Shown here in pieces: positions 11,199 to 36,968 of a stretch of 38,354 nt of DNA. Position numbers and translations under genes: made by a program. The DNA is from Promethearchaeota archaeon (lineage in GTDB: Archaea; Asgardarchaeota; Lokiarchaeia; Sigyniarchaeales; SOKP01), in NCBI GenBank assembly GCA_048940645.1, contig JBHLOI010000034.1, positions 1 through 38,354 on the forward strand. Reading direction: 5' to 3'. The stretch's first letter is position 1. Each line of letters starts with the position of its first letter. The notes under the pieces are model-generated. The model worked only from the letters and a program-made list of their open reading frames with translations. It did not search any database and had not been told where the DNA came from.

Positions 11199-11202
11199 AA
11201 AT

Positions 11203-11874
11203 ATGTCAGATGAAAAAATTTTAAATTTACTTAAGGAAAGCGTTTTAAATTTTGATGAAGAGGGTGCCGTAGAAGCTGCTAATCGAGCAATAGGGGCAGG
11301 AATTGATCCATTAAAAGCAATAAGGGAGGGCCTATATCTGGGTTTAAAAGAAATCGCAGATCAATATGAAGACACAATCTATATAACAGACATGATCATA
11401 GCTTCAGATGTGTTTTATGCAGGTGCTAATATTTTAAAATCTAAAATAGATCCAGAAAAAGCCAAGGCACACAGTAAAGGAACAGCTGTTCTTGGTGTAG
11501 TGAAAGGGGATGTTCATGATCTTGGCAAGAATATGGTGAAGTACCTATTTGAAGCTGAAGGTTTCGAAATTATTGATCTAGGCTTTGATGTTCCCGCTGA
11601 GAAATTTATTGAAGAGGCAGAGAAAAACAATGCGAATCTTATCTTAATCTCAGCAATGCTAAGCTCAATGTTTCCTGAAATCGGAAAAATCGTTAATTTA
11701 GCTAAAGAAAAAAAACTGCAAGCAAAGGGAGTGAAAATTATGGCAGGTGGGGGACCTGTTTCAGAAAGTATAGCTTATCAACAGGGTGCTGATGGATGGG
11801 CCTTAACAGCTCCTTTAGCCGTGAAAAAAGCATTGAGTTTGCTTAAATCAATTAAAAATCATAAAAAAAGTTAG
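11203..11874 (+). CDS. Corrinoid (B12-binding) protein, MtaC/MtbC-like
   Basis: Four-helix cap followed by GDVHDLGKN (DxHxxG), SAM and MAGGGP. The ATG at 11203 lies 4 nt after the upstream stop. Confidence 0.92.
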   Translation: MSDEKILNLLKESVLNFDEEGAVEAANRAIGAGIDPLKAIREGLYLGLKEIADQYEDTIYITDMIIASDVFYAGANILKSKIDPEKAKAHSKGTAVLGVVKGDVHDLGKNMVKYLFEAEGFEIIDLGFDVPAEKFIEEAEKNNANLILISAMLSSMFPEIGKIVNLAKEKKLQAKGVKIMAGGGPVSESIAYQQGADGWALTAPLAVKKALSLLKSIKNHKKS

Positions 11875-15497: not shown

Positions 15498-16760
15498 ATT
15501 AAAATTACCAGAGATGTTGTCCCTAACGAAAAGATACGAACTATTATCAATTCAGATTATAAGGATAATGAATTCATAGATTTGATGAGAGATGTCATAA
15601 AAGAATCTATAGATTTAAATTCTATCTATAGGGACCTTGCTAAAAAGGTAAATTTTAATGTAGATGATTTGAATAAATTAGAAGATTTGGCCATAATCCC
15701 TTATGTGTCGGCTGTTTCTTTTAAAGAATCGAATGGTTTATTTGAAAAATTGTTAAAAATCCCTTTAAGATCCCCTGAGTTTGAGACTTGGAATGTTTCC
15801 TCATGTACCACTGGAGATCCATCCATAGTGGGACGTTCAGAAGACGATATAGAATTGTTGGCGAGTATGACCATCAAATGTATTTATGATTTTATTCCCA
15901 TTCCCAAAGATGAATGGTATAATACAATCTCATTTGATTTCTCTCCAAGTGTTACTTTCTTAAACAGAATTGCAATGAGATATACAAAAATAAGACCCGT
16001 CAAATTATATGGGAGTGTTCTACATGAAATATCAACAAGAATGTCGAATCCAAAATTTTTGGTTAAATTTTTCATTTTTAAAGCTCTTAAGGAAATTATT
16101 AGAAGACGAAGTCTTGTGGGCGCTTTTGGAATAAATTCAAAATTCGTAATTAAAAAAGTCAAAAAAAACTTAGAAAAAACGAAAGAGAAACAAAAACATA
16201 TCTCATTTGGGGGAAGTCTCCAATTACTAAATAGGTTTATGAACGTCTATATGAAAGAAAATAATGTAAAATTTGAATTACCGGATAGTGTTGTTAATAC
16301 TGGAGGTGGTGGATGGAGCGGGCATAAATCTCAACTGAAATATCCACCTATAGATAAAACACAATTTGTTACGGCCTGTATTGAGTCGTTTGGGACTAAA
16401 GCAGATAGAATTACCGATATGTATGGCTTTACGGAAACACCAATAGTATTTGGTAGTCATTGGTCAGATAAACACCAAGACTTTATATTTCATTGTCCAC
16501 CTCAAGCTAGAATTATTATCAGAGATTTGAATACTCTAGATCCTCTTAGAAAGACTGGTGATAGGGGTTTTATAGAAGTGCTTACACCATTTGGTGTAGC
16601 TACTTCAGTAAATCACGCAATATCAATAGATGATTTAGTCGAATTGGTTTCAAAAAATAAATGTCCTGAATGTGGATATGAAGGTGATACATTTATAGTT
16701 CATGGTAGAATTAGGGAAAAAGAAGGATTAGGATGTTCATCCATAGTTGAGTGGATATAG
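15498..16760 (+). CDS. LuxE-like acyl-protein synthetase / adenylate-forming enzyme; start extended
   Basis: SSCTTGDPS P-loop variant, TGGGGW, DMYGFTE, GR and C-terminal GCS. Proposed ATT start at 15498 after GAGGTG; the ORF track starts at 15582. Confidence 0.72.
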   Translation: MKITRDVVPNEKIRTIINSDYKDNEFIDLMRDVIKESIDLNSIYRDLAKKVNFNVDDLNKLEDLAIIPYVSAVSFKESNGLFEKLLKIPLRSPEFETWNVSSCTTGDPSIVGRSEDDIELLASMTIKCIYDFIPIPKDEWYNTISFDFSPSVTFLNRIAMRYTKIRPVKLYGSVLHEISTRMSNPKFLVKFFIFKALKEIIRRRSLVGAFGINSKFVIKKVKKNLEKTKEKQKHISFGGSLQLLNRFMNVYMKENNVKFELPDSVVNTGGGGWSGHKSQLKYPPIDKTQFVTACIESFGTKADRITDMYGFTETPIVFGSHWSDKHQDFIFHCPPQARIIIRDLNTLDPLRKTGDRGFIEVLTPFGVATSVNHAISIDDLVELVSKNKCPECGYEGDTFIVHGRIREKEGLGCSSIVEWI

Positions 16761-16945: not shown

Positions 16946-17866
16946 TTATGATTTTACAATTTCTACGAGTTTTGGAAAGATTCGAGTGTAATGTACACTC
17001 ATTGCATGTACACCGCTAAGAAGGTCCTTCCTTTTGAGCTCCGTTATGAATGGTTTAAAGAATTCATAATTAGCTTGGTCATAAGCTTCTTTTTGCATTT
17101 TTTTATCAGTCGAATAATCCGTTTTTATCGATTTCCATTTCGTAAGAATGTCTTTGGGCACAGATACACCCGGAACGAATGTATCGAAACCTTTAGCAAT
17201 TCCATAGTTCTTCATTGGAAATAAACCTAAGAGAATAGGCACTCCGTACTTTTTTATTGCAGTTAAAAACTCAATAGTACGATCTAAGTCATATACAACT
17301 TGAGTTTGTAAGAATTCAGCACCAGCTTCAGCTTTTCGACCTATCTTTAATACTTCTGCTTCCATTGGTTCTGCATTTGGATTTGCCGCAGCCCCAACAT
17401 GGAGAGTTGGAGGATGTTCAATTTCATGTCCATTAATCTTGCCAGTATCTACCATTTCCCTTACAAGTTTTACTAATGTTGCAGAATCCAAATCAAAAAC
17501 AGGCTTACTTTCAGGCATATCGCCCAATGCTGTATGATCTCCAGTAAGGGAAAGGATATTACGTAATCCTAAAGCATGACCTCCCATTACCATGCCAGCA
17601 ATTCCAAGTTTATTTACATCTCTTACCGTTAATTGCCAAATAACCTCTAGATTTGCTTCCCTTTGAATAATATGTGATGCCGCCATACTGTTAATAGTAA
17701 CAATACCAAGTGGACTATCAGTAACGTTAGCTGCAACAACATAAGGAGCCATTTCTCTCGCTTCTTGGATAGTATGAGAGAGATCACAAGTCTTTTCTGG
17801 TTCAAGTTCGCCAGTAAGCACAAATTCACCTTTTTTTAACATTTCTCCTAATTTTGAATATGCCAT
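16946..17866 (-). CDS. metF: Methylene-THF reductase catalytic subunit, copy 1
   Basis: TGELEP, ANVTDS, QLTVRD, LTGDH, AANP, QTQ motifs of the MTHFR barrel. Confidence 0.93.
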   Translation of the reverse strand: MAYSKLGEMLKKGEFVLTGELEPEKTCDLSHTIQEAREMAPYVVAANVTDSPLGIVTINSMAASHIIQREANLEVIWQLTVRDVNKLGIAGMVMGGHALGLRNILSLTGDHTALGDMPESKPVFDLDSATLVKLVREMVDTGKINGHEIEHPPTLHVGAAANPNAEPMEAEVLKIGRKAEAGAEFLQTQVVYDLDRTIEFLTAIKKYGVPILLGLFPMKNYGIAKGFDTFVPGVSVPKDILTKWKSIKTDYSTDKKMQKEAYDQANYEFFKPFITELKRKDLLSGVHAMSVHYTRIFPKLVEIVKS

Positions 17867-17877
17867 TTAGTCCACCT

Positions 17878-18549
17878 CTATCTAAATACCACTTCTTGCT
17901 GGTGACCAGATTCAGACCAATCTCGAGCATCACGCAATCTGCTGAATAAATCTAATCTATTTATAGCTTTCAAGCGATTAAAGATCAAAATCCAACCACA
18001 ATCTTTCTCATAATTACCCACTTCACATTTTCCATCAACCATTCCACCACAAGGACCATTCATAAGTCCTTTAGCACATGTTGCAATAGGACAAACTCCA
18101 CCTGTATAATTTAAATAACAATCACCACATGCTCGGCATCGCATATAAAATCGTCCGATTCTCTCCGTCATCCCAATAAATTTTGTATTATTTGAAATAA
18201 GTACAGGCTTTTCTGGATATTTATTTTGAAGAACTTCTACGATTGATTGAGCTCCAAGACCACAACTAAGAGTGAGTATTGCATCAGATTCTTGTATCTC
18301 ATCATCAATTCTACGTAAATCTTTCTTCATAACCCTATTGTCGCACACATCTTCTGAGACAATTACAGCCTCTATTTCATAACCTCTTTCCTCTAATTTC
18401 CTTTTCCAGTCTTCTGCTCCTTCAGTTCCCCCAGTTTGGCATAAAGCAGCACAAGTTCCACAAGAAACGAGAGTTAGTTTTTTAGCTTTATAATTCTGAA
18501 GAGCTTCAAATACTTCCTCATCTGGTTTTTTAGTTGTAATTACAACCAT
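17878..18549 (-). CDS. metV: Methylene-THF reductase Fe-S small subunit, copy 1
   Basis: CGTCAALC, SCGLG and CRACGDC...GVCP...CAKGLMNGPCGG...CE...CGW (MTHFR_C). Confidence 0.9.
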   Translation of the reverse strand: MVVITTKKPDEEVFEALQNYKAKKLTLVSCGTCAALCQTGGTEGAEDWKRKLEERGYEIEAVIVSEDVCDNRVMKKDLRRIDDEIQESDAILTLSCGLGAQSIVEVLQNKYPEKPVLISNNTKFIGMTERIGRFYMRCRACGDCYLNYTGGVCPIATCAKGLMNGPCGGMVDGKCEVGNYEKDCGWILIFNRLKAINRLDLFSRLRDARDWSESGHQQEVVFR

Positions 18550-20622: not shown

Positions 20623-22101
20623 TCAGATGCCTATAATATATGGCAGAATTTTTACTAGAGGAACAGCCAAACCGCCAAGGAGGGAGCCTATTGAGGTGAA
20701 TTTTTTAAAGTAGGCTTTAAAATTTTTTGTCACTTTTATGGTTCTTGTTTTACCTTCAATAATAGTTCCATCCTCCGAGAGTAGAAACACTTGAATTGTT
20801 TGTTCTCCAGTCTCTCTAGGTTCTAATGTTAACCACGTCGTATCCCCATTTTCTAACATGGTAGACAAAGTCCCAGCAATATCTTGCTCCTCAGAGGATA
20901 TTAAGGGTATTGGGCTACTTGGAATTAAAAAATTACCACGCCCCTCCACCTTTATGTCAAGTTTTAATTTTCTTGGTTCAAATCCGGGGGCATTTACATT
21001 TATGATATATTTTTTATCATTAGGAGCATTATTGTAGAGAAAAATCATAATATTTAACTCACTTCCAAGATAAACAACTTCTTGTGCCGTGGAATCCATA
21101 TAAATGGGATCTTTAGAAATTCTTTCAATATTATCTGCTAATTCTAATTGGAGTCTATCTATAATGTTAAAGAAACCTGGATTATACTTTTTAATATAAG
21201 TGAAAAGTTTGTATATATCTCTGGTTGAAAAATACCAAGAGCCTTCAATTAGTAGCCCTTTTTCTATATCAAAATCAATTGAATCAACATTGATAATTTC
21301 TTTCAATTCTTTTGTAAATTGTTCATCAGTTAGAACATTTTGATATCTTAGATAATATAGGAATAAAATTGATTCAACTGCAAATGTCACAGGTAACTCT
21401 TCTTCCTCTTGCTCTCTAACTTTTTGAATAAATGATGATTTTAAGATTTTATTCAATCCTACTAAATATTCATCCCATTTGAGAAAAGTAACGGGATCGA
21501 GATGGTCTGAAAACACTTCAGCAAAAAAATTATCTAAGAAAATTTGGTGGGTCGTAGGTTTATAAAAATCTTGTAAACCATTAACATCATGAATGTTTAA
21601 ATTTAAACTCCGAATAAGAATTGCTAATCCTAAACCTACAAGGGAAAAGCCTGCTGCGAGGAATCCAATATTTAAATCAACTAAGACCAACATAACAATA
21701 AATAACCCAAGAGCAACGAAACAAATAAATGCAATTATTTTCAATAAATTTACCACTCTTTTTACACTACTTGATAACATGTCAAATCCATCTAAACTAT
21801 CTATTGGCCTACCACGCTTTCGTTCAAATTTAAGTCGCATTCTTAGAGAAGAATTTGTTGAACTTGCGCCTAGAAGTAGCATAAATGAATTAAATGCATA
21901 TAGAGCTAAAATAGCTAAAAAAACTATTTGTAGAGTAAAATCAAGAGCTTGAATAAGAGCAAGCAAGGTTACTACAACAAGAGCAACCGGTAGAATGAAT
22001 AATAAAAGTTTACCAACTTTCGAGATATAAGAAACCATTTTACCCTGAAATCTTTCTTTCTTGATAATTTTTGATAAGTCTTTTTCTAATTCATTTTCCA
22101 T
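20623..22101 (-). CDS. Hypothetical membrane protein (4 N-terminal TMs, soluble helical plus beta-rich domain, hydrophobic C-terminus)
   Basis: 492-aa ORF; topology judged from hydropathy by eye. Confidence 0.75.
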   Translation of the reverse strand: MENELEKDLSKIIKKERFQGKMVSYISKVGKLLLFILPVALVVVTLLALIQALDFTLQIVFLAILALYAFNSFMLLLGASSTNSSLRMRLKFERKRGRPIDSLDGFDMLSSSVKRVVNLLKIIAFICFVALGLFIVMLVLVDLNIGFLAAGFSLVGLGLAILIRSLNLNIHDVNGLQDFYKPTTHQIFLDNFFAEVFSDHLDPVTFLKWDEYLVGLNKILKSSFIQKVREQEEEELPVTFAVESILFLYYLRYQNVLTDEQFTKELKEIINVDSIDFDIEKGLLIEGSWYFSTRDIYKLFTYIKKYNPGFFNIIDRLQLELADNIERISKDPIYMDSTAQEVVYLGSELNIMIFLYNNAPNDKKYIINVNAPGFEPRKLKLDIKVEGRGNFLIPSSPIPLISSEEQDIAGTLSTMLENGDTTWLTLEPRETGEQTIQVFLLSEDGTIIEGKTRTIKVTKNFKAYFKKFTSIGSLLGGLAVPLVKILPYIIGI

Positions 22102-22307: not shown

Positions 22308-23420
22308 ATGAGAAGAATCCGTAGTATTGATACTATTCGTGGCGCTTGCATGTGGATTATGATATTTGGGCATATATTAGAATGGTGGATTAGTTATGAT
22401 AGTTATTGGTTTAAAGATTGGATGTTTGCATTTCTGGAATCGGTTGGTGCTACAGGATTCCTTTTTGTTTCAGGAATTAGTACTGCTTTAGCTTATAAAA
22501 GTAGTTTAATTAAAACTAATAATTCAACGAATTTTAATCTATTGATGGCTAGAAAAGTATATTTCATTAGAGCAATAATAATTTTACTTATAGGTTTTCT
22601 TTATAATACTCTTTTCGTAATAATTTGGAGTGGTGATATAGCAGATATTTGGACTTGGTATGTTCTTCAAACAATTGGATTTTCGCTTATACTAGCTTGG
22701 CCTTTCTTAAAAATGCCTAAATATATAAGAATAGTTGTAAGTATTCTTGTATTTGCCATAAATTTGATACTTTTAGATTTATTATTACCTTATGAAGGAC
22801 AAGCTAATTTTTTTGGTATCTTCTTTCATATATTATATAATCCTTCAGATCAATACATAATTCTAACTTACTTTGGGATTTTCCTTTTAGGAACTGTAAT
22901 AGGCGATATTCTATTCGAGATTAGTAATATACAAGATCTAACAAAAAAAAAACAATTTTTTAAAAATAGATTCATTTTACCCTCTTTAATCATTGGAACG
23001 GGTGTATTAATGTTTGGGATTTTCTTTCATTTTCCAAATTTTTTAATTTTAGGTACTCTATCATCATTAGCTTATTCCTGGGGTTTGATCTTAATTGTTT
23101 TTTCAATATTTATTGCGATTGAGGTATTTGAAGTATTTAAAACTACAAAAAGCTATAGGCTATTATATTATTTTTCATTTTACTCTTTTACTATCTATCT
23201 ATCGCACTATGTACTGTATTTTCTTTTCCCTGGACAATTCAACTTTATCGAGATTTTAATCATTTGGATAATTGGAACTGCTTTATGTGGGGTTTTATTT
23301 AGGTTAGTATACCATAAATTAGGTGCAAAAGCTTCACTAAAAGCTGTTATTACCATCTTAAGTTATAGATTATCAATGAAAATTAACTTACAAGAGGTCT
23401 TGAAATTTAAAAAAAAGTAA
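22308..23420 (+). CDS. Membrane acyltransferase, HGSNAT/DUF1624-like
   Basis: RIRSIDTIRG...H, FLFVSGIS, VLQTIG, SFTIYLSH; about 10 TMs. Confidence 0.8.
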   Translation: MRRIRSIDTIRGACMWIMIFGHILEWWISYDSYWFKDWMFAFLESVGATGFLFVSGISTALAYKSSLIKTNNSTNFNLLMARKVYFIRAIIILLIGFLYNTLFVIIWSGDIADIWTWYVLQTIGFSLILAWPFLKMPKYIRIVVSILVFAINLILLDLLLPYEGQANFFGIFFHILYNPSDQYIILTYFGIFLLGTVIGDILFEISNIQDLTKKKQFFKNRFILPSLIIGTGVLMFGIFFHFPNFLILGTLSSLAYSWGLILIVFSIFIAIEVFEVFKTTKSYRLLYYFSFYSFTIYLSHYVLYFLFPGQFNFIEILIIWIIGTALCGVLFRLVYHKLGAKASLKAVITILSYRLSMKINLQEVLKFKKK

Positions 23421-27441: not shown

Positions 27442-28563
27442 TTATTTGCCATGTTTTCTACTTAGGCGATAGTTTCTAATTTTTGTCTCTGTAAAACACC
27501 ATAATACGCCAATAATAACACATGTGATTATGGCAATGATATCATAAAATATACAGAATATTAGATCAGATGTTTCATATGGGTCCGGAACAATACATGC
27601 AAAGTTTCCAGTAAACGCTTTCATTAAGCCGAAATAGAAAATTTGTACTAAGAGGATATGATATGATGACTTTCCAATCCAGGCTATACCTTTCGCAAAT
27701 TTATTCTTTGGATTACTTGGAAAAATTAACATTACAATTAGAAATAAGAAAGCTGTATAGGTATAAAAAATAATGTTATAATCACTTCTCAAATACTCAA
27801 TTTCATAATCATGGAATTGAAAGAGATATATATAGTAGGCACATAACGGAAACACGATCCACATGAATAAATTATGCAAACTAAATAGTTTATGGTTTCT
27901 AGAAAACCACATCCCCAGTCCAATACCACCAATATACATAAATATAGTCATGTAATAGAAAACCATGGTATGCCAATCCATCGCAAAGTAAAACATAAAT
28001 AAACTAGTAATAAAATTAATTAGAAAACATAAAGTTAGGGTGAATAAAGCCCAGGCAGTTCTTCCAGAGAATCCTTTATAAATAAGTGGCATTACTAATA
28101 TTGTTTGGAAAAGAAAAGGAATAAACCATACCCCCGGTCCCCAAAAAGGAGTAATGCCCAAGTAAAGATGTTTTTCGTTCATAACAGGATATAATTGATT
28201 TAAAATCATATTACAAAAGGAACCATAGATGATTAAACCAATAATTGTTGATATGACATATAAAAGGAGATATGGAAAAACATACCTCCAAAATTTTTTC
28301 TTAAAATAATGCCATGAATAAAGTTCTTTTAATGAGGATTTTCCAGTTCTTTTAAAAGACAACCCCATATTAAATCCCAAGATAACTACAAAAAACGGAA
28401 TTGAAAGTCTTTGCCATAAATGAACAACCATCAGATCTCTTATTTCTGGTGGAAGTCTAACAAGCGCATGCTCAGAAATAACAAAAATTATAAAAATAGC
28501 TTTTAAGAGGTCTACCTGAAAGTAATAATTACTCTTTTCATTTATTTCCTTCATGTGAACCAA
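27442..28563 (-). CDS. Acyltransferase-3 family membrane protein
   Basis: VDLLKAI..VISEH, IPFFVVILG, WFIP, IGKSSYHILLVQ. Confidence 0.82.
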   Translation of the reverse strand: MVHMKEINEKSNYYFQVDLLKAIFIIFVISEHALVRLPPEIRDLMVVHLWQRLSIPFFVVILGFNMGLSFKRTGKSSLKELYSWHYFKKKFWRYVFPYLLLYVISTIIGLIIYGSFCNMILNQLYPVMNEKHLYLGITPFWGPGVWFIPFLFQTILVMPLIYKGFSGRTAWALFTLTLCFLINFITSLFMFYFAMDWHTMVFYYMTIFMYIGGIGLGMWFSRNHKLFSLHNLFMWIVFPLCAYYIYLFQFHDYEIEYLRSDYNIIFYTYTAFLFLIVMLIFPSNPKNKFAKGIAWIGKSSYHILLVQIFYFGLMKAFTGNFACIVPDPYETSDLIFCIFYDIIAIITCVIIGVLWCFTETKIRNYRLSRKHGK

Positions 28564-28708: not shown

Positions 28709-29170
28709 TTAGTAGGGGTTTTTGCCATTCTGAGAAATTGTTTTAATAGGTTTAAGTACTACACAAACTCTTTCAACACTTTTTACATCGCTTCTACCCC
28801 GAAAATTTTCAATAAAGGCGTCAAGTTCTGTTATTTCTGGGACGTTGACTTTTACTAAAATTCCACATTCTCCCGCTAGAAAATATACTTCCTCACATTG
28901 AGGCAATATTTGGGTTTCTCTTATTAATTCTTTGATTTCAGACTGATTTTTAGGTAACAAGGTTATAAATGCATAAATGCAACGCTCTTCTTCTCTACAA
29001 ACCTTAATTGTAAATTTCTCTATTACACCGTCTTCTTGCAAACGTATTACTCTTTTACGAACAGTTGATTCTGAGAGTTCCACTTCCGTTCCAATCTCAT
29101 GATAAGGTCTTCTTGAATCTTCAATTAGCATTTCCAATATTTTTTTATCCTTCTCATCTAAATTTTTCAT
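28709..29170 (-). CDS. Lrp/AsnC family transcriptional regulator
   Basis: LDEKDKKIL..L..DSR...LSESTVRKRVIRL..GVI HTH followed by a RAM domain. Confidence 0.93.
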   Translation of the reverse strand: MKNLDEKDKKILEMLIEDSRRPYHEIGTEVELSESTVRKRVIRLQEDGVIEKFTIKVCREEERCIYAFITLLPKNQSEIKELIRETQILPQCEEVYFLAGECGILVKVNVPEITELDAFIENFRGRSDVKSVERVCVVLKPIKTISQNGKNPY

Positions 29171-29278: not shown

Positions 29279-30217
29279 CTAGAAATCTTTTAATAATGGA
29301 TCGAATAACCTTTCATATTCAACAGCCATGCAATGAATACCTGCTGCTTTAGTGCTTTTCTTGATCTCTTTGATAAATGGTTCAAAGAATTCAATATTTA
29401 TCTTATCGAGTGCCGCATATTTAGCTGGTTTATTCCCCTTATTGTCTTTTTCTGCTTTTTTAAGTGCTTTAAGAAGGTCTTTTGGAACAGAAACACCAGG
29501 TATATAATTATCAAAATACCAAGCAATCCCATAAGATTTCAGGGGAAATACTCCCAAAAGCACTGGGACATTGAATTGCTCCAGATCTTTAAGAAAATCC
29601 TTTGCTTCATCAATATCAAATGCTGTTTGTGTTTGAATAAAATCAACACCTTGTTCCACTTTACGGCCAACTTTAAGGATCTCTGGTTCACGTGGATTAC
29701 TATTTGGATTAGCAACACATCCATAGTTCATTTCAATCTTACCACCCTCAAGTTCATTTCCTTCATAATCAGTGCCTTCATCGATCATAATCGAGAGCAT
29801 TTCACAGAACTGGGTACTATCAATATCATAAACAACTCTTCCTTTTTTGTGATCTCCAAGCGATGTATGATCTCCTGTTAGGGTTAAAATATTTTTTAAT
29901 CCCAATACAGCTCCCGCTATTACATCTCCAAAGAGGGCAACACGATTGCGATCCCTTACTGTAACTTGCCATACTGCTTCGAGCCCTACTTTTTCCTGAA
30001 CTAAATAACTCGGTACTAATGAACACATATAAGCATCTCCCTGCGGTCCATCAGTCACATTTGCTGCTACGATCTTCCCAGTCTTCTTCATTTCTTCAGC
30101 AGAATGAAATATTTCCTTAAGACTAAGTATCTTTTTAGGTTCTAGTTCGCCAGTAAATATAAAATGCCCCGTCTCAATTGCTTTACATAAATTACTATAA
30201 GCTGGTCTTTTTCCCAT
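29279..30217 (-). CDS. metF: Methylene-THF reductase catalytic subunit, copy 2 (Hdr-linked)
   Basis: TGELEP, ANVTDG, QVTVRDRN, LTGDH, QTQ. The start abuts the metV stop (TAA-ATG). Confidence 0.93.
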   Translation of the reverse strand: MGKRPAYSNLCKAIETGHFIFTGELEPKKILSLKEIFHSAEEMKKTGKIVAANVTDGPQGDAYMCSLVPSYLVQEKVGLEAVWQVTVRDRNRVALFGDVIAGAVLGLKNILTLTGDHTSLGDHKKGRVVYDIDSTQFCEMLSIMIDEGTDYEGNELEGGKIEMNYGCVANPNSNPREPEILKVGRKVEQGVDFIQTQTAFDIDEAKDFLKDLEQFNVPVLLGVFPLKSYGIAWYFDNYIPGVSVPKDLLKALKKAEKDNKGNKPAKYAALDKINIEFFEPFIKEIKKSTKAAGIHCMAVEYERLFDPLLKDF

Positions 30218-30916
30218 TTAGCCCTTCACCTCTTCTTTTTCTTCTTCTACATTCGTATATTCTTTATAAACTTCCAAATATCCTGGACTTGTAGAAGTTC
30301 TGTAATCCCTTGGACCCCTATATTTTTTAAACAAATCTATTCTATTGAATTCCTTTAATCTTTTCCAAATTTCAACCCATGCACATGGTACTGTATATCC
30401 TCTTACTTCACACATGCCATCAACCATTCCTCCACAAGGTCCATTACTTAAATGTTTAGCGCAGCCTGCACGAGGGCACACCCCACCAGTTTCTCCAATA
30501 ATACAATCTCCACATGTTTCACATAACTCAATAAAGTTATTTTCTCCATTACTCTGTGCACCACCAAACATACTATTTTGAGTTGGAAAGGTTAATTTCT
30601 GTGGTAAAACTTTATTCATCATAACAACCCCTAATCCGCAAGCTAATGTAAGAATCGCTTCATAATCTTCTACTAAAGGCCTTACAGTTGTCGCAGCAAT
30701 TCTGTCATCACATTGTCTTAAAACAGTAATAGCTTTCCATTTTAGATCTTTTCCCTTAGTTCTTGCTTTTAATTCTAAGAGTTGTCCGAGCAATTTTGCC
30801 TCATTTACACTTCTGGGTGGTTGGCAGCATCCATCGCAGCCTGCTATGAGGATTTTGTTGTATGGCTCTATATACCCATAAATTTCTTCAATATCTTTTA
30901 ATTGGGTTATAATCAT
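30218..30916 (-). CDS. metV: Methylene-THF reductase Fe-S small subunit, copy 2
   Basis: GCDGCC, ACGLG, CETCGDC...GVCP...CAKHLSNGPCGG...CE...CAW. Confidence 0.9.
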   Translation of the reverse strand: MIITQLKDIEEIYGYIEPYNKILIAGCDGCCQPPRSVNEAKLLGQLLELKARTKGKDLKWKAITVLRQCDDRIAATTVRPLVEDYEAILTLACGLGVVMMNKVLPQKLTFPTQNSMFGGAQSNGENNFIELCETCGDCIIGETGGVCPRAGCAKHLSNGPCGGMVDGMCEVRGYTVPCAWVEIWKRLKEFNRIDLFKKYRGPRDYRTSTSPGYLEVYKEYTNVEEEKEEVKG

Positions 30917-31002
30917 TTTTCAAAACTCCACATTTTTTCATTTATTTTTAGATTTTCATAAAAATTTTCAATTTATTTTATATATCAAAAAAGTTCTCAT
31001 AT

Positions 31003-31899
31003 TTAGGTCGTTAATTTTTCAATTAACTTATTAGGTTTCACACTTCTAGTAGAAAGACTAAGATCTTCTAAAGCTACTCCCAATGCAATTGCCATTATTT
31101 CAGGCAGATATAATACCGGGATATTCAGTTCTTTTCCCGTCCTACGAGCAATTATCTTTTCTTTTCTGTCATACTGGGTTACACAAGCGGGGCATACTGC
31201 AATTAAAGCATCAACTTCTTCTTCAAGTTCACATAACTCTGTCATTTTGTCTTCAACAAGTTTTTCGCCAATTTCTTCCTGTAAACGAGCACAAAAACCA
31301 CAGCATTCTAATTTATTAGCAAAATCAATTGTTTTTGCCCCAAGAGTTTGAAGAATAAGATCAATTTTTTCAGGCTTTTCTGGGTGATCAAATCGCATTA
31401 TTTTACTCGGTCGGACTAAGTGGCAACCATAATGCACAGCAAGATTTAAATCATCAAGGGGTTTAATCACTAAACTTTTTATTTTCTCAAGCCATTCTGG
31501 TTGGGTGAACACTTCTACAAAATGATAAACATTTATTTTTCCGGTATATTTATAGTTTATTTTCTTTAAGATTTCATTAATTTTCTTCAAATGCTCAGGA
31601 TCCTCTCCTAGAAGAACATTTACAGTTTTTAAGGTTTCATAACATCCCGAACAAATGGTTAGAACATCTAATCCTATTTTTTCTGCAATAGCAAGATTTC
31701 GAGCTCCTAAAGTTAACCAGGTATCAATATTTAATGATTGTAATGATACTGGCTCTGGACAACAACTAACACCCTCCATCTCTTTTAATCCAACACCTAA
31801 AATGCTTGCTACATCTCTAAATGCTTTCTCTAGCTGTGGCATTTTTAGTGGTATTGTACATCCTATGAAAAATGAGAATTCTTTACGGCTATTCGTCAT
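31003..31899 (-). CDS. hdrB: Heterodisulfide reductase subunit B-like (two CCG domains)
   Basis: FIGC, CCPEP, TICSGC, HYGCH, CCG, VCPAC. Confidence 0.93.
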   Translation of the reverse strand: MTNSRKEFSFFIGCTIPLKMPQLEKAFRDVASILGVGLKEMEGVSCCPEPVSLQSLNIDTWLTLGARNLAIAEKIGLDVLTICSGCYETLKTVNVLLGEDPEHLKKINEILKKINYKYTGKINVYHFVEVFTQPEWLEKIKSLVIKPLDDLNLAVHYGCHLVRPSKIMRFDHPEKPEKIDLILQTLGAKTIDFANKLECCGFCARLQEEIGEKLVEDKMTELCELEEEVDALIAVCPACVTQYDRKEKIIARRTGKELNIPVLYLPEIMAIALGVALEDLSLSTRSVKPNKLIEKLTT

Positions 31900-32433
31900 T
31901 TATTTATCATCCTCCTTTTTTATTACAAGATCACCTAATCCTGTTTCGTTTATTATAAATCTTATATCGTTAAGATTTGGTGGAATAATTTCTGGCAATC
32001 CCATTCTTTCCCGCCTTCTATCGATATTTTTCTTCATTCCTTCGGTATAAGGTACTACAAAACCATTATCATAAATGACCTCAACCGTGCTCGAATATTC
32101 TTTTGGTATTTTTCCCACTTTTGCCGCCATATTTCTCAATAACGCTAAAATGAAAGAATAATCTACATTTTTAGGACATCTTTCAGTGCACCTATGACAC
32201 AACGAACATGTCCAAATTGCGCTACTGGATAAAACTTCTTCTTTTAACCCTAAAAGGCATGATGCAACTACTCTATGTGGTTGCATATCGACATATTCCG
32301 TTACTGTGCAACCAGAGCTACATACACCGCATTGAATACACTTTAAAAGGGATTTTGCACCAACTTTTTCGGCTATCTCATAACGGAAGTTTAAATCTAA
32401 CTCATTTGCGTTTTTCTTTAACATTTCAGTCAT
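31900..32433 (-). CDS. hdrC: Heterodisulfide reductase subunit C-like (2x[4Fe-4S])
   Basis: CIQCGVCSSGC and IWTCSLCHRCTERCP. Confidence 0.93.
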   Translation of the reverse strand: MTEMLKKNANELDLNFRYEIAEKVGAKSLLKCIQCGVCSSGCTVTEYVDMQPHRVVASCLLGLKEEVLSSSAIWTCSLCHRCTERCPKNVDYSFILALLRNMAAKVGKIPKEYSSTVEVIYDNGFVVPYTEGMKKNIDRRRERMGLPEIIPPNLNDIRFIINETGLGDLVIKKEDDK

Positions 32434-32436
32434 TTT

Positions 32437-35400
32437 TTATGCTCCCTCCTTTGCTTTTTCTTTTTTGGGTTCAATTCTATCACCAGTTTTAGCTAAAGGT
32501 CCAAGTTCTTTCACTTTATTTACAAATTCGGTTACTAACTCTGAGAAACGTTTGCCTTCACTAGCGGATACCCACTCAAGTCTATAACGATCAGGATTAA
32601 TCCCTACTTTTTCAATTATTTCATGAAGTTCATTATAACGCATTTGCATATCATAATTACCTTCCAAGTAATGACAGTCACCAATATGGCATCCACCTAC
32701 TAATACACCATCAGCACCTTCTAAAAATGCCTGTAAAATGAAGTGTTTTGGTATCCTTCCTGTACACATTACTCTTATTGGTCTAATGTTGGTTGGATAT
32801 TGGAAACGGCTTACACCACATGTATCTGCTCCAGCATAACTACACCAATTACATAAGAATGCCACAATACGAGGTCTCTCGTCAACAAAATTTCCTCGAA
32901 CAGCCTCTCTAATCATAGGATATATCTGTTCGTCTGCAAAATGACTCATGGTAATAGCTCCTGCTGGACATGCAGCAGCACAATCACCACATCCTTTGCA
33001 TAGTAAAGGATTGGATTCTGATACTAAAATTTCATTATCAAAATTTACGCCAATCGCTCCAAAATTACATACTTCCTCACATTTTTGACATGCTATACAT
33101 AAAGCAGGATTAACTACTGAAATTAAAGGTTCATTTTCAACCTCTCCAGAAATAAGTGGGATTAAAGCATGAGCTGCTGCGCCTCTCCCTTGAGAAATCG
33201 AATCTGCTATTCCTTTTGGGCTATGACACGTTCCTGCTAAATATATTCCATCAGTGGCAAAATCAACTGGTCGTAATTTTACGTGTGCCTCTAAAAAGTA
33301 TCCATTCTGATCTCTTGCACATTTAATCATTTCACCAAGTTTTTGAGTATCATGAGGAATTAAAGGTGTCGAAAGAACAACCTTATCTGCCTCTATTTCT
33401 AGATCAGTTTGAGTCAAAATATCTTTTACTTCAACCTTTAATTTATTATTTGCTATATCTACAGTTGGATAATCATTGAATCGTATATAATTGACACTTT
33501 CGCGTGCTTTCCAATAATAAGTTTCTTCATCAGTTCCTACTCGTATATCCCTATATAGTACATAAATATTTGAATTTGGGTATGTCTCTTTCACATATAA
33601 GGCATGTCTAATTGATTCAGAACAACATATTAAAGAGCAATAAGTTACTCCATTTCCTCCTACAGGCTGACGTGAACCCACACAATGAATAAACACGAGT
33701 GTCTCACCATCTTTTAATTCATTATTCTTCAATTTCTCTGATAGTTCTAATTGGGTCATTACTTTGTCGCTCATATGTTTCTCTCCATAATGATACCACC
33801 CTTCAGGTTTTAATTCATATGCTCCCGTTGCTGTTATAATTACTCCTACGTTTAAATCAGTATTTTTGGCTTCTACTTTACTCTTAACCTTTACTTTGAA
33901 ATCTCCGATGGAACCTTTCACATCTATTACTTCAGAATTCAAATAAGTAGTAATATTTTTATGAGAATTGAATTCTTTAAGGTGATTCTCTAAATATTCC
34001 TTAGAATCAATTCGATCAAAGTTAATTTTGTAGATTTGGTTCAATTGGCCTCCTAATTTATCTTCTTTTTCGATAAGATGAACTTTAAATCCTTTATTTG
34101 CAATCTCCATTGCAGCATTAATTCCTGTAACTCCCCCACCTACTATTAAGGCTTCTGGAATCACGCTCCCCTTAATCTTGTATTCAGGTCTCTGACGAAT
34201 TACCCGTGCAACTCCCATTCTTATTAGATCTTTTGCTTTATCAGTTGCTCTTTCATTATCTTTCATATGGACCCAAGAATCTAATTCGCGAATACTTACA
34301 AAATTAAAGAGATACTCATTTAGTCCAGCCTCTCGGATTGTTTTTTGGAATAGAGCTTCATGAGTTCTAGGGGTACATGCAGCTACCACTACTCGATTTA
34401 GGTTAAGTTCTTCAATTTTTTCTTTAATAATATCTTGTGTTAATTGAGAGCAGCTATATTTATTTTCCATGGAATAAACTACATTTGGTAATGTTTGAGT
34501 GTATTCAACTAAATTAGGTACATCTATATACCCTGCTATGTTAATGCCACACCTACAAATAAATACTCCAACACGGGGCTCATCTCCAGGATTTATTGGT
34601 ATTAATGGCGGTAGCTCTACTTTAGTTTCTTCCTCACTTAGAGGGACAGCATGAGAAGCCGCTAAAGCAGCAGCGCCTCCAGCTTTTGCTACTGAGTTTG
34701 CTATATCATCAGGAGACTGACAAGAACCAGTTACATACACACCATTCTTTGTAGATTTTAAATCTTCCGTAGAATCTTTCGTTTTAAAAAATCCTAACTG
34801 ATTCCTTTCTATACCCAGAATTTCTGCTAATTTTTCAGCATCTTTTCTTGGGGTTACAGCATTAGCAAGTACGATAAGGTCAAATTCTTTTGTCTCTACT
34901 TCCCCAGTATCTAGATTAGCCGCTTTTACATATAAATTATGATTCTCTGGATTTTCACGAACATCTCCAGGAACTCCATGGTGATAATGTAAATTATATT
35001 CATCTTTAGCTCTTTCTATGAATTCTTCTTGATTTTTACCAATTACTCTAATATCATTAAAATAGATGGTAACATCTGTGTCTGGGGCGTGTTCTCGTGT
35101 TACTACCCCCTCTTTTGCCATGTACATACAGCAAAATTTAGAACAATAAGCACATATATCTTCATTTCTAGATCCTACACAAGCAACAAATGCTATATTA
35201 TGAGCAAGTTCCTTATCTGATGGACGTAATAATTCTCCCCCAGTAGGACCTGAGGCGCTCAGTAATCGTTCATACTGCATAGCATTAACAACATTAGGAT
35301 ATTCACCAAAGTGATACCGATCTAAAACACGCGAATCTATTTGATCATAACCAGTGGCTACAATAATTGATGCAACATTATACTCAACTACTTCGTCTTT

Positions 35401-35934
35401 CATGTCGAAATTAATTGCTCCTGCCTCACATTCTTTTTCACACAACTGGCAAGCTCCCTTTGTCAAATATAAGCATTTATCAGCATCAATAACAGCCTTC
35501 CTTGGAACTGCTTGCGGAAATGGAATATATATCGCCGTACGATTGCCCATCCCCTCCTCAAATTCACTAGATATTTTTTTCATAGGACATTTCTCTTGAC
35601 AGGCTGCACATCCCGTACATATATCCCAATCTACATATTTTGCTTTTTTAAGTACTTTAACATTGAAATTTCCGGCTTCTCCATTCAGTTCTTGCACTTC
35701 GGAATATGCTATAAGTTCAACGTTTGGATGACGAGATACTTCAACCATTTTTGGTGCTAGAATACATATTGAACAATCTAATGTAGGAAAAGTTTTATCT
35801 AATTGTGCCATTCGACCACCAACTGAAGATGTCTTCTCTACAAGAATAACATTATATCCTTGCTCAGCCAGTGTAAGGCTTGCTTCTATTCCTGAAATTC
35901 CACCACCAATAACCATTATATTGCTATTTGCCAT
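32437..35934 (-). CDS. hdrA: Tandem HdrA (two FAD modules) fused to C-terminal MvhD
   Basis: GGGISG...QLDKTFPTLDC, inserted ferredoxin, CVGSR..CSKFCC; internal RVGVFICRCG and ACTPRTH; second GGGVTG with CVGSR..CSLICC; 2x[4Fe-4S]; MvhD motifs FLCNWCSYAGAD, VMCTGR, GCHIGDCHY, SASEG. Confidence 0.95.
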   Translation of the reverse strand: MANSNIMVIGGGISGIEASLTLAEQGYNVILVEKTSSVGGRMAQLDKTFPTLDCSICILAPKMVEVSRHPNVELIAYSEVQELNGEAGNFNVKVLKKAKYVDWDICTGCAACQEKCPMKKISSEFEEGMGNRTAIYIPFPQAVPRKAVIDADKCLYLTKGACQLCEKECEAGAINFDMKDEVVEYNVASIIVATGYDQIDSRVLDRYHFGEYPNVVNAMQYERLLSASGPTGGELLRPSDKELAHNIAFVACVGSRNEDICAYCSKFCCMYMAKEGVVTREHAPDTDVTIYFNDIRVIGKNQEEFIERAKDEYNLHYHHGVPGDVRENPENHNLYVKAANLDTGEVETKEFDLIVLANAVTPRKDAEKLAEILGIERNQLGFFKTKDSTEDLKSTKNGVYVTGSCQSPDDIANSVAKAGGAAALAASHAVPLSEEETKVELPPLIPINPGDEPRVGVFICRCGINIAGYIDVPNLVEYTQTLPNVVYSMENKYSCSQLTQDIIKEKIEELNLNRVVVAACTPRTHEALFQKTIREAGLNEYLFNFVSIRELDSWVHMKDNERATDKAKDLIRMGVARVIRQRPEYKIKGSVIPEALIVGGGVTGINAAMEIANKGFKVHLIEKEDKLGGQLNQIYKINFDRIDSKEYLENHLKEFNSHKNITTYLNSEVIDVKGSIGDFKVKVKSKVEAKNTDLNVGVIITATGAYELKPEGWYHYGEKHMSDKVMTQLELSEKLKNNELKDGETLVFIHCVGSRQPVGGNGVTYCSLICCSESIRHALYVKETYPNSNIYVLYRDIRVGTDEETYYWKARESVNYIRFNDYPTVDIANNKLKVEVKDILTQTDLEIEADKVVLSTPLIPHDTQKLGEMIKCARDQNGYFLEAHVKLRPVDFATDGIYLAGTCHSPKGIADSISQGRGAAAHALIPLISGEVENEPLISVVNPALCIACQKCEEVCNFGAIGVNFDNEILVSESNPLLCKGCGDCAAACPAGAITMSHFADEQIYPMIREAVRGNFVDERPRIVAFLCNWCSYAGADTCGVSRFQYPTNIRPIRVMCTGRIPKHFILQAFLEGADGVLVGGCHIGDCHYLEGNYDMQMRYNELHEIIEKVGINPDRYRLEWVSASEGKRFSELVTEFVNKVKELGPLAKTGDRIEPKKEKAKEGA

Positions 35935-36329: not shown

Positions 36330-36968
36330 TTACAACTTGAGTAGTTCTTTTAAAAGTTCCTCTGCCGTAATAATGCCTTTTAACCTTTTTTCTTCATTAA
36401 TGATTAAAAACGGAACAGTTGATACATTATATTTTTCACCAATATCAGGATGTGCCATAACATCTACAATAATCGTCTTTATTTTACCTTTTGACGCTAA
36501 AGCGTACTGACTGCAGATTGATAAAATAGTAGGACAATAAGCACAAGAATCCGTAATCAATACCTTAATAACAATAGAATCCAATTTATTTAGGTTTTGC
36601 CTTATAACAGCCTCATAATAATTAGGAGTTCCAGTAAACACCATTAATGCCTGTACAAATGGTTGGATTTCTGCTGCCATGGGCACCGCTAAATAACGTA
36701 TAATTTCTAATCCTTGGTTATTCATTAGCAAAATCGCAGGTACTCGTTGAATATCATACTTTTTAGCTAATTCAGAATTTGTTTCTATCTTATATTCTTC
36801 GATTTTTAACATTCCATTGGAACCTTTTTGATAAGTATCCAAGGTATCCATCATATATACAGATTCTTGGAGATTATTTGATGATGTAAAAACTTTTAAA
36901 GTAACTGGTTTCGTAAGTTTTTTAATCTCATTACGAATCATCTTTTTATAAATATAGGAAACTGGCAA
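36330..36968 (-). CDS. Two-thioredoxin-fold protein disulfide oxidoreductase (PDO/AhpF-NTD-like)
   Basis: Two Trx folds with cis-Pro motifs (RVP, TVP); CAYC present only in the second fold. Confidence 0.85.
   Translation of the reverse strand: MPVSYIYKKMIRNEIKKLTKPVTLKVFTSSNNLQESVYMMDTLDTYQKGSNGMLKIEEYKIETNSELAKKYDIQRVPAILLMNNQGLEIIRYLAVPMAAEIQPFVQALMVFTGTPNYYEAVIRQNLNKLDSIVIKVLITDSCAYCPTILSICSQYALASKGKIKTIIVDVMAHPDIGEKYNVSTVPFLIINEEKRLKGIITAEELLKELLKL

Follow-up and report, generated by a model that had tools for sequence, protein, structure and literature searches.

A conserved hdr-metVF operon in Lokiarchaeia is an archaeal variant of the bacterial Hdr-type methylenetetrahydrofolate reductase

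Results

Five co-oriented genes join an Hdr module to MetVF

The window, that is, the whole 38,354-nt stretch of DNA analysed, comes from an Asgard archaeon (Lokiarchaeia/Promethearchaeota), the host that the first-pass annotation had thought probable. It contains five minus-strand open reading frames (ORFs) in the same orientation, and a recheck of the ORFs returned exactly the arrangement annotated earlier, with intergenic gaps of 3, 0, 86 and 0 nt. The features of the locus are as follows.

32437..35934, minus strand: hdrA::mvhD (ORF1), 1165 aa, tandem HdrA fused to MvhD
31900..32433, minus strand: hdrC-like gene (ORF2), 177 aa
31003..31899, minus strand: hdrB-like gene (ORF3), 298 aa
30917..31002, minus strand: hdrB-metV spacer, 86 nt
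30218..30916, minus strand: metV (ORF4), 232 aa
29279..30217, minus strand: metF (MetF1, ORF5), 312 aa, MTHFR-family TIM-barrel flavoprotein
28709..29170, minus strand: AsnC/Lrp-family regulator, 153 aa, 108 nt 3' of metF and in the same orientation
16946..18549, minus strand: second, Hdr-free metV2-metF2 pair, 223 and 306 aa, a paralogue outside the operon

The regulator and the second metVF pair were both absent from the earlier annotation; MetF2 is 45% identical to MetF1.

Searches of Pfam and NCBIfam bore out the five gene identities proposed before (hdrA-mvhD, hdrC, hdrB, metV and metF). ORF1 carries two FAD/TrxR-like modules, Fer4 domains and an MvhD/FlpD domain (Pfam, 175.6 bits, residues 1023-1145). 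ORF2 is HdrC-like (NCBIfam TIGR03290, 99.6 bits, under the 160-bit cut-off), with two CxxCxxCxxxC motifs at Cys32-42 and Cys76-86. The HdrB-like ORF3 has two CCG domains in Pfam (NCBIfam TIGR03288, 272 bits, under the 345-bit cut-off) and keeps all ten cysteines (C14, C46, C47, C83, C86; C159, C199, C200, C236, C239). ORF4 is a cysteine-rich MetV (13 Cys) with a DUF5981 C-terminal domain (96.9 bits), for which a PDB search returned no sequence relative, and ORF5 matches the MetF family (PF02219 in Pfam, 88.8 bits). Among the scanned window ORFs of at least 100 aa there was no hydrogenase large subunit, Fdh or Mcr, as had been noted, and no electron input is encoded at the locus, in agreement with the earlier remark that none was obvious there. 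Genes for an MtaA/URO-D-like methyltransferase and for a corrinoid protein lie elsewhere in the window.

Complementary losses in the two halves of HdrA

The HdrA portion of ORF1 was mapped by residue alignment to 5odc_A and 5odc_D, by a cysteine map and by half-against-half BLASTP. Half 1 (residues ~1-450) has a TrxR-like FAD module, whose Cys54/Cys57 correspond to Cys194/Cys197 of 5ODC HdrA, a bifurcation signature (E222/K274) that aligns to E356/K409 of 5odc_A, and a TrxR-domain cluster (Cys252/264/268/269). It also contains an inserted 2x[4Fe-4S] ferredoxin domain (Cys106-169), residues ~100-175 aligning to the insertion in 5odc_A with eight cysteines conserved. Neither the N-terminal domain nor the C-terminal ferredoxin domain is present in this half. 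Half 2 (~451-1010) retains the HdrA N-terminal domain (Cys460/462/495/520) and a C-terminal 2x[4Fe-4S] ferredoxin domain (Cys946-989); its TrxR-like FAD module lacks both Cys197 and the ferredoxin insertion. In this half the lysine position of the signature is Arg776, and the alignment of the glutamate is ambiguous. MvhD follows at residues 1020-1147. The mapped HdrA::MvhD Fe-S cysteines, Cys54/57, E222 and K274 were invariant in 15 sequences with identities down to 48%. The losses of the two halves thus complement each other, a pattern that Chadwick et al. (PMC9012536) read as a built-in heterodimer.

The match to the methanogen MvhADG-HdrABC complex (PDB 5ODC) is extensive: the HdrA halves align to 5odc_A with E = 7e-204 and MvhD to 5odc_D with 5e-49, and the clusters, Cys197 and the E/K residues are the same. 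In contrast to the HdrA homodimer of methanogens, however, the Asgard protein is one tandem polypeptide, MvhA and MvhG genes are absent from the locus, MetVF is encoded at the place expected for the donor module, and a source of CoM-S-S-CoB is not known in the Asgard archaeon. Membership of the Mvh-Hdr class was rejected because the locus has no hydrogenase genes. The F420H2-dependent HdrA2B2C2 of Methanosarcina acetivorans (PMC5296606) likewise has HdrA fused to MvhD and no hydrogenase, but only the Asgard HdrA is linked to metVF. ORF1 exceeded the HdrA2 cut-off (NF040770, 1167 against 1100 bits), but this score is summed from three stretches over a duplicated protein; HdrA2 membership was rejected on the duplicated architecture, 1165 aa and two modules as compared with a 777-position one-module model.

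Linkage of hdr genes to metVF is conserved

Related loci were found with a six-sequence MetF1 alignment, a search that returned Lokiarchaeial MetF1 loci only. The hdr genes lay directly 5' of metVF in 80/80 named Lokiarchaeial MetF1 loci, in two gene orders. The order hdrA-hdrC-hdrB-metV-metF was found in 57, seven were incomplete but consistent, and 16 had a second order, which in Loki_b32 reads hdrC-hdrB-hdrA-hdrA-mvhD-hdrA::mvhD-metV-metF, with metV starting 17 nt after hdrA::mvhD. Another Asgard family shows a third order, metV-metF-hdrA-hdrC-hdrB. The AsnC regulator was 3' of metF in 79 of the 80 named loci. An HdrB orthologue (at least 54% identity) was present in 45/61 genomes of the family, about 1 kb from metF wherever coordinates were given; it was missing from four genomes of genus g3, which also lack MetF1. 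Recurrence in all 80 related named loci places the arrangement far beyond chance. The synteny search suggested at first pass therefore came out in favour of a conserved linkage, with three gene orders and co-absence in g3. An upstream thioredoxin-like gene was found in the closest relatives only and was rejected as a conserved partner.

The hdrB-metV spacer has a T6 run 13 nt past the hdrB stop codon, and its GGAG precedes the metV ATG by 9 nt. Across 74 related loci the spacer measured 46-117 nt (median 86), with a T5-8 run and GGAG conserved. Partial termination or an internal start would fit these features, and the conserved T-run makes separate transcription of metVF possible. When MetV, MetF and HdrA residues 935-1165 were submitted together to complex prediction, three runs scored 0.65, 0.65 and 0.66, while partner-replaced controls scored 0.00 and 0.00; a MetF-replaced control scored 0.59 and is uninformative in this three-chain design, and the scores are taken neither for nor against a complex.

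The genome has an H4MPT branch that lacks a true Mer

The genome (89.6% complete) encodes Ftr (180 bits), Mch (360), Mtd (366), CdhC (210) and RFAP synthase (311), together with FolD (330 bits), DHPS (203.6 bits, cut-off 162.6) and at least seven HdrB paralogues. Nothing in it exceeded 348.7 bits for Mer (TIGR03555). The best scores, 138-140 and 107-108 bits, belong to generic F420 LLM proteins; for two F420-type LLM paralogues Mer was the best match, below threshold. Nor was Mer above cut-off in any of the other 40 family genomes (0/41 with this one), 38 of which have Ftr. Mer is present in other Asgard families (17/19 genomes of f12, 3/3 of f13, 6/6 of f19, 5/5 of f8 and 4/4 of f15), so that those families conform to the expectation of Mer as the usual archaeal enzyme, and the present one does not. 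Genus g3 lacks both Mer and MetF1 and keeps MetF2 and Ftr. Fhs, the formate-THF ligase, was absent from the genome and from all 61 family genomes searched, which cover 13 genera. No McrA was found, and an Mcr-linked heterodisulfide role was rejected for that reason.

In the MetF tree, which held no named ANME-1, Moorella or Sporomusa sequences, MetF1 formed a 100%-supported clade within a 99%-supported archaeal clade. The archaeal clade takes in a Bathyarchaeota-named representative, and a Clostridioides-named representative falls across the split. In a representative search the best full-length sequences were 46-48% identical to MetF1, none being close, and clostridial-type representatives were 36-37% identical; of ten representatives looked up, two carried organism names. 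Comparison with acetogen homologues, also proposed at first pass, hence put clostridial MetF on the other side of the split. Sequences of the archaeal clade accompany Ftr, essentially without FolD, in six Asgard families (f9, f12, f13, f16, f18 and f21); in f5 and f14, which have FolD and lack Ftr, none was found. The distance between metVF and a bona fide mer (399-500 bits) is 0.3-3 kb in families f9, f13 and f19, and in f18 such a mer shares one cluster with metVF-hdrACB.

The bacterial-type THF methyl branch first assigned to this archaeon was consequently not upheld: Fhs is missing, Ftr, Mch, Mtd, an archaeal CdhC and RFAP synthase are present without a true Mer, and across Asgard archaea the MetF clade tracks Ftr, often without FolD, with mer nearby in four families. 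The substrate may nonetheless be a folate, since FolD and DHPS are both present.

Comparison with bacterial and archaeal MetVF systems

The fourth, Hdr-type methylene-THF reductase, HdrCBA-MvhD-MetVF, is that of Moorella thermoacetica and Sporomusa ovata (Mock et al. 2014, per PMC9430772). The likeness to the proposed acetogen complex pointed out in the first-pass annotation stands, as the parts list matches this type (PMC9430772): the same six functional parts lie in one cluster, and the HdrB and HdrC cluster ligands are likewise intact. As in S. ovata, HdrA has two TrxR-like flavin modules with a clear E/K signature in one only. The bacterial proteins were compared by description rather than by alignment; on this basis the Asgard operon differs in its archaeal host and archaeal-clade MetF, in the fusion of MvhD to HdrA, in the inserted ferredoxin domain of HdrA, reported missing in both bacterial HdrAs (PMC9430772), and, as compared with Moorella, in having no GltD/NAD(P)H domain. 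Judged from gene content, its carrier is probably H4MPT rather than THF. We conclude that the operon is an archaeal variant of the bacterial Hdr-type MTHFR, and new as a variant.

MetFV has been proposed to replace Mer in ANME-1 and Ca. Syntrophoarchaeum (Chadwick et al. 2022, PMC9012536; PMC10322722), and the ANME-1-type MetF clade includes Asgard sequences (PMC9012536). As in ANME-1, metV adjoins metF, and Mer is absent while the rest of the H4MPT branch is kept. Clusters of MetFV, HdrA and MvhD also occur in Ca. Syntrophoarchaeum, and a tandem HdrA with complementary loss of Cys197 and of the N-terminal domain is common to all. The Asgard host differs from both in being non-methanogenic and Mcr-free, and in a reversed HdrA module order, with the Cys197-bearing half first. 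Unlike ANME-1, in which metFV is unlinked to hdr and FolD and DHPS are not present, it has the full hdrA::mvhD-hdrC-hdrB set linked to metVF and has both folate proteins.

Discussion

The reading that we prefer, and to which we give about an even chance, is that the operon encodes an Hdr-coupled, ferredoxin-linked methylene-H4MPT reductase, or a methyl-H4MPT dehydrogenase if it runs in reverse. The flavin TIM barrel of MetF would interconvert methylene- and methyl-tetrahydropterin, most probably H4MPT, and the Fe-S clusters of MetV would wire MetF to the Hdr module. Pull-downs from Sporomusa ovata have shown MetV binding HdrA and MetF (PMC9430772). The tandem HdrA would be its own heterodimer and a single bifurcation unit, in which half 1, bearing the E/K signature, would hold the bifurcating FAD. 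Electrons would leave to ferredoxin from the cluster of the half-2 N-terminal domain, completed by Cys57 of half 1, through the inserted ferredoxin domain of half 1. The C-terminal ferredoxin domain and fused MvhD would form an input/output arm, and a further route would lead to HdrC and HdrB, where the ligands of the disulfide-reducing cluster are all intact. A single bifurcation unit with these arms would tie the methylene/methyl-pterin couple, through flavin-based electron bifurcation or confurcation, to ferredoxin and to a third partner, which would be a thiol/disulfide at HdrB or else a donor docking at MvhD. In the H4MPT Wood-Ljungdahl methyl branch, which is otherwise complete, the complex would stand in for F420-dependent Mer. 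It may work in the reductive direction, where it would serve as an acetogenic electron sink, or in the oxidative direction, on methyl groups.

The methylene/methyl-H4MPT couple lies at about -310 mV. This makes it a poor high-potential acceptor for bifurcation, and the scheme therefore requires a further disulfide. Several Asgard families have MetVF alongside Mer, f18 among them with an Hdr-linked MetVF, so that replacement of Mer is no general rule.

Methylene-THF, at about -200 mV, is thermodynamically favoured as a bifurcation acceptor. The operon might encode a folate-specific electron-bifurcating methylene-THF reductase, in which methylene-THF replaces heterodisulfide as the high-potential acceptor, a hydrogenase, an FrhB module or NAD(P)H donates at MvhD, and ferredoxin is co-reduced. 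The MTHFR family is known with folates alone, FolD is found in 38/40 family genomes, and the AsnC-type regulator hints at C1 units from amino acids. With FolD and DHPS encoded, a folate pool probably exists, and methylene-THF could then be a substrate of MetF1 or MetF2. In cultured Loki strains, metF belongs to the partial H4F branch that these cells use (PMC12222021). We nevertheless consider this reading improbable, if by no means far-fetched: besides the lack of Fhs throughout the family, metVF shows no linkage to folD or folP, six Ftr-positive, essentially FolD-free Asgard families have related MetFs, which cluster with mer, and Ftr-Mch-Mtd and Cdh would be left disconnected if there were no methylene-H4MPT reductase.

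It is distinctly unlikely, in our estimation, that the stand-in for Mer is instead the Hdr-free MetVF2 or a divergent F420-dependent LLM protein, with Hdr-MetVF1 serving as a methyl-oxidation module in which methyl-pterin is the bifurcation donor, for example on methylated or methoxylated substrates. Genus g3 has MetF2 and Ftr in the absence of Mer and MetF1, and MetVF2 may be the real stand-in; f16 and f21 similarly have Ftr, no Mer and Hdr-free MetVF only. The methyltransferase and corrinoid protein in the window, the LLM paralogues, and the docking of donor modules at MvhD in structures of methanogen Hdr complexes are in keeping with such an arrangement. The operon itself, however, has no linked substrate-specific methyltransferase, the LLM paralogues score 107-143 bits as compared with 399-500 for true Asgard Mer, and sequence does not reveal in which direction the reaction runs.

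That hdrACB and metVF are neighbours without a complex, forming separate transcription units and enzymes with regulation or history alone in common, would fit the conserved oligo-T after hdrB, the spacer and own GGAG of metV, the promiscuity of Hdr modules implied by at least seven HdrB paralogues, and the looseness of the S. ovata complex (PMC9430772), but is most improbable given a linkage preserved through three rearrangements and among sequences that diverge by more than 50%, the co-absence in g3, and the 17-nt gap between hdrA::mvhD and metV in the second order.

Returning to the methylene-H4MPT reductase, a more specific form of it can be tentatively put forward, although we think it rather unlikely in its details. 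MetVF would replace hydrogenase on the Hdr core, with MetV docking at the arm formed by MvhD together with the C-terminal ferredoxin domain. The C1 couple, rather than H2, formate or F420H2, would exchange electrons with the bifurcating flavin, in a reversible link to ferredoxin and an Asgard thiol/disulfide at HdrBC. The bacterial Hdr-type complex has never been purified, and its electron donor and mechanism are yet to be established (PMC9430772).

Published Lokiarchaeial Wood-Ljungdahl reconstructions list 'mer' (e.g. 10.1101/826495, following Sousa et al. 2016). The present family contrasts with these, having a conserved Hdr-MetVF operon and, in 41 genomes, no true Mer. If the operon carries out the methylene-H4MPT step, electron carriers and ATP balance would shift, from F420 to ferredoxin and a thiol; the numerous 'orphan' Hdr complexes of non-methanogens would acquire a concrete substrate, and the bacterial Hdr-type MTHFR would have a simpler relative for study, with HdrA as a single polypeptide. 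Should MetVF indeed sit on the Hdr core, Mcr-free Asgard archaea would gain an F420-independent, energy-coupled Wood-Ljungdahl methyl branch, and their retention of many Hdr complexes would be explained.

Genes of the operon and its surroundings

The five hdr and met genes are co-oriented, with gaps of 3, 0, 86 and 0 nt, exactly as described in the first-pass annotation; this was confirmed from the ORF coordinates and Pfam/NCBIfam matches. The same searches identified every part of the acetogen HdrCBA-MvhD-MetVF complex, namely HdrA, HdrB, HdrC, MvhD, MetV and MetF.

35934..32437, minus strand: hdrA::mvhD, 1165 aa, HdrA-like with a C-terminal MvhD/FlpD domain (175.6 bits; Pfam, NCBIfam)
32433..31900, minus strand: hdrC-like (TIGR03290, 99.6 bits)
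31899..31003, minus strand: hdrB-like (TIGR03288, 272 bits), two CCG domains
30916..30218, minus strand: metV (DUF5981, 96.9 bits)
30217..29279, minus strand: metF, encoding MetF1 (PF02219, 88.8 bits)

A gene for an AsnC/Lrp regulator lies on the same strand, 108 nt downstream of metF. No hydrogenase, Fdh or Mcr was found among the other window ORFs scanned, as had been noted before. The window holds a second, Hdr-free metV-metF pair (encoding MetV2 and MetF2), which the first-pass annotation did not mention.

18549..16946, minus strand: metV2-metF2, with neighbouring ORFs at 13788-15329 (minus) and 15582-16760 (plus)
10059-11198 and 11137-11874, plus strand, overlapping by 62 nt: methyltransferase of the URO-D family, MtaA/CmuA-like (sub-threshold at about 100 bits), and B12-binding corrinoid protein
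5575-7917 (minus), 11852-13708 (minus), 20623-22101 (minus), 22308-23420 (plus), 27442-28563 (minus): other ORFs, encoding a CDC48-like double AAA ATPase, an Eco57I-type DNA methylase, a 492-aa protein that matched no Pfam family and two acyltransferase-3 membrane proteins

Only metF1 and metF2 represent the MTHFR family in the organism's own genome (3.83 Mb, 89.6% complete). The neighbours of metV2-metF2, which recur in relatives, encode a flavoprotein resembling dihydrolipoyl dehydrogenase (520 bits to NF004947, whose cut-off is 592 bits) and a LuxE-like acyl-protein synthetase. In many genomes of the organism's own family, f1, the two metVF pairs lie 8-16 kb apart on one contig. ARAGORN found no tRNA genes in the window.

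The linkage of hdr and metVF is conserved

MetF1 homologues at 87-98% identity carry names such as Promethearchaeota and Lokiarchaeota. The window proteins were compared by tblastn with 40 further genome loci and 80 named genome loci, and hdr genes were directly upstream of metVF in every MetF1 locus surveyed. The order hdrA-hdrC-hdrB-metV-metF(-asnC) was present in 57 of the 80 named loci and a further 7, cut by contig ends, were consistent with it; the remaining 16 had a second order, represented here by Loki_b32.

Loki_b32, NJBH01000016, L120 682-10933: hdrC-hdrB-hdrA(431 aa)-hdrA(554 aa)-mvhD(256 aa, extended)-hdrA::mvhD(1153 aa)-metV-metF-asnC

In Loki_b32, where metV starts 17 nt after hdrA::mvhD, the Hdr set is doubled. 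In f18, a different Asgard family, a third order was seen: metV-metF-hdrA(1206 aa)-hdrC-hdrB. The proposed linkage was therefore upheld in relatives, with 80/80 named loci consistent and three gene orders.

Orthologous HdrB (at least 54% identity) was detected in 45 of 61 f1 genomes, about 1 kb from metF in every f1 genome with both coordinates listed. Both orthologous HdrB and MetF1 were missing from four genomes of g3, a genus of f1. The survival of the linkage through rearrangement and the joint absence of the genes in g3 are strong evidence that hdr and metVF form one functional unit. The only MetF1-type match outside f1 (75% identity; G136:C450:1713-2630, family f22) is possibly mis-binned, since its contig is short and its family otherwise has neither MetF nor Ftr.

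The spacer between hdrB and metV (30917-31002) was conserved in 74 loci (46-117 nt, median 86); a T5-8 run closely follows hdrB, and GGAG precedes metV. Since these elements are conserved, the spacer may carry an attenuation or (partial) termination signal, or an internal start. In relatives, a short inverted repeat (GTGT/ACAC) often brackets the oligo-T run.

MetF1 belongs to an archaeal clade

In a tree of 124 MetF sequences (LG+G4, SH-aLRT; none a named ANME-1, Moorella or Sporomusa reference), MetF1 formed a 100%-supported clade. MetF1, the MetF2 of f1 and f2 (another Asgard family) and the Hdr-linked MetF of f18 formed an unresolved three-way split within a 95%-supported group. The enclosing 99%-supported clade contained other Asgard families and a Bathyarchaeota/Hecatellales-named representative. 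MetF1 fell on the archaeal side, with a Clostridioides-named representative across the split. This placement indicates that MetF1, which is 45% identical to MetF2, is an Asgard-internal paralogue of it, with no recent import from acetogens; it agrees with the earlier placing of Asgard sequences within the ANME-1-type MetF clade (Chadwick et al., PMC9012536).

Distribution was assessed in a sample of 201 Asgard genomes, which are related, so that the counts are not independent; absences rest on MAGs, many of which are 95-100% complete. True Mer, the F420-dependent methylene-H4MPT reductase, was found in 0/40 f1 genomes in the sample, while Ftr was present in 38/40. Mer is frequent elsewhere (f12, 17/19; f13, 3/3; f19, 6/6; f8, 5/5; f15, 4/4). 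In six families (f9, f12, f13, f16, f18 and f21), the archaeal MetF clade is accompanied by Ftr, with FolD essentially absent; in f5 and f14, which are FolD-positive and Ftr-negative, the clade was not found. In f9, f13 and f19, metVF has bona fide mer genes (399-500 bits) at a distance of 0.3-3 kb, and in f18 the series metV-metF-hdrA-hdrC-hdrB is continued by two mer genes, all on one strand (G025). Loci with mer (399-500 bits) beside metV-metF in four other Asgard families are as follows.

L036 8312-11119
L040 6984-9854
L037 8238-13569
L033 8241-17638

Judged from gene content, this pattern of co-distribution with Ftr rather than FolD, together with mer-metVF clustering, connects the archaeal MetF clade with the metabolism of methanopterin, not of folate. 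By the same evidence, MetVF and Mer can coexist, and outside f1 they are linked. 'Replacement' of Mer is therefore a family-specific loss of Mer (f1, f16, f21) and no general rule.

The organism encodes an H4MPT route

The organism's own genome encodes an H4MPT route, comprising Ftr (180 bits), Mch (360 bits) and F420-dependent Mtd (366 bits), along with archaeal CdhC (210 bits) and RFAP synthase for methanopterin synthesis (311 bits). Fhs (formate-THF ligase) was not found there or in any of 61 f1 genomes, which span 13 genera. Together with the archaeal placement of MetF1, these results speak against the 'bacterial-type THF methyl branch' of the first-pass annotation. FolD and dihydropteroate synthase (C36:11167-12030, L138; 203.6 bits, above cut-off) are present, and a folate pool is therefore likely. 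The dihydropteroate synthase gene adjoins, in divergent orientation, the gene for a CofE-like gamma-glutamyl ligase, which at 183 bits is slightly above the F420 CofE cut-off and also matches a putative folate gamma-glutamate ligase family.

No true Mer was found in this genome (89.6% complete), where the best matches to Mer models scored 138-140 and 107-108 bits against a cut-off of 348.7.

C28:47765-48889 (L003): LLM oxidoreductase, 140 bits
C52:106125-107198 (L004): LLM oxidoreductase, 108 bits

Mer models are the best matches of both, but at scores far below 348.7 bits; the two are generic F420-type LLM oxidoreductases, and are probably the source of 'mer' labels in Lokiarchaeum papers (10.1101/826495). 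The C52 copy adjoins lysine-fermentation (Kce-like) genes.

Cofactor sites of the tandem HdrA, HdrB and HdrC

Residues of HdrA and MvhD were assigned by alignment to the solved 5odc_A (E = 7e-204) and 5odc_D (5e-49). HdrA is a tandem of two modules. Half 1 (about 1-450), matching 5odc_A positions 146-513, has an FAD/TrxR-like domain, whose Cys54/Cys57 correspond to Cys194/Cys197 of 5odc_A; it also contains an inserted two-cluster ferredoxin domain and the TrxR-domain cluster. Its Glu222/Lys274 sit at the positions of Glu356/Lys409, a residue pair of the type that constitutes the bifurcating-flavin signature (PMC9430772). In half 2, Arg776 occupies the signature Lys position and the Glu alignment is ambiguous. 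The MvhD domain spans residues 1020-1147 of the fused protein. These ligands of the two halves are invariant across 15 orthologues, down to 48% identity. The losses in the two halves are complementary, a feature of fused HdrAs that has been read as a built-in heterodimer (Chadwick et al., PMC9012536), although here, unlike in those proteins, the half with Cys197 is the first. In HdrB, the two CCG motifs retain ten of ten Cys, and in HdrC both ferredoxin motifs are preserved.

Comparison with known systems and proposed mechanism

Among known systems, the Hdr-type MTHFR of Moorella and Sporomusa, compared by its published description, comes closest; as a complex it has never been purified (PMC9430772). 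It and the present operon share a parts list and a two-flavin HdrA. However, the present operon belongs to another lineage (the archaeal MetF clade), its MvhD is fused, the ferredoxin-binding inserted domain is retained, there is no GltD/NAD(P)H domain, and the carrier is probably different. MetF in place of Mer, with MetFV perhaps joined to Hdr, has been proposed for ANME-1 and Ca. Syntrophoarchaeum (PMC9012536, PMC10322722). A literature search found no published description of the operon in Lokiarchaeia.

We propose that MetF would carry out the methylene/methyl-pterin step and that the MetV clusters would link it with the Hdr core. MetV might dock at the MvhD arm, at HdrBC or at the half-2 cluster; in pull-downs from S. 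ovata, HdrA and MetF bound to MetV but HdrB did not (PMC9430772). The tandem HdrA would supply one signature flavin. The ferredoxin exit would run from the half-2 N-terminal cluster, completed by Cys57, to the half-1 inserted ferredoxin domain, and MvhD plus the C-terminal ferredoxin would form one arm of the tandem HdrA, with a route to HdrCB.

On H4MPT the methylene/methyl couple lies at about -310 mV, and on THF at about -200 mV. With H4MPT as carrier, reversible bifurcation/confurcation with a disulfide at the intact HdrB site would fit better, because the couple is approximately midway between ferredoxin and a CoM-S-S-CoB-like disulfide. McrA was not found in the organism's own genome, and no matching thiol is known in the organism. 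Were THF the carrier, the pterin could act as the high-potential acceptor in classical bifurcation. At 36330-36968 (minus strand), co-oriented with hdrA and 395 nt upstream of it, the window encodes a thioredoxin/glutaredoxin-like protein that has two domains and one CAYC motif. As its gene holds this position in the closest relatives only (84-87% identity, tblastn), it is a weak candidate for the thiol/disulfide partner of HdrB.

Elsewhere in the genome there are genes for three group-3-like NiFe large subunits, as well as for at least 7 HdrB paralogues, and external donors are therefore available. The operon could act as an acetogenic sink or in methyl oxidation. Oxidation is a possible direction given that the window encodes the MtaA-like methyltransferase and the corrinoid protein, a pair that may constitute a methyl-transfer or O-demethylase system supplying methyl groups to the C1 pathway.
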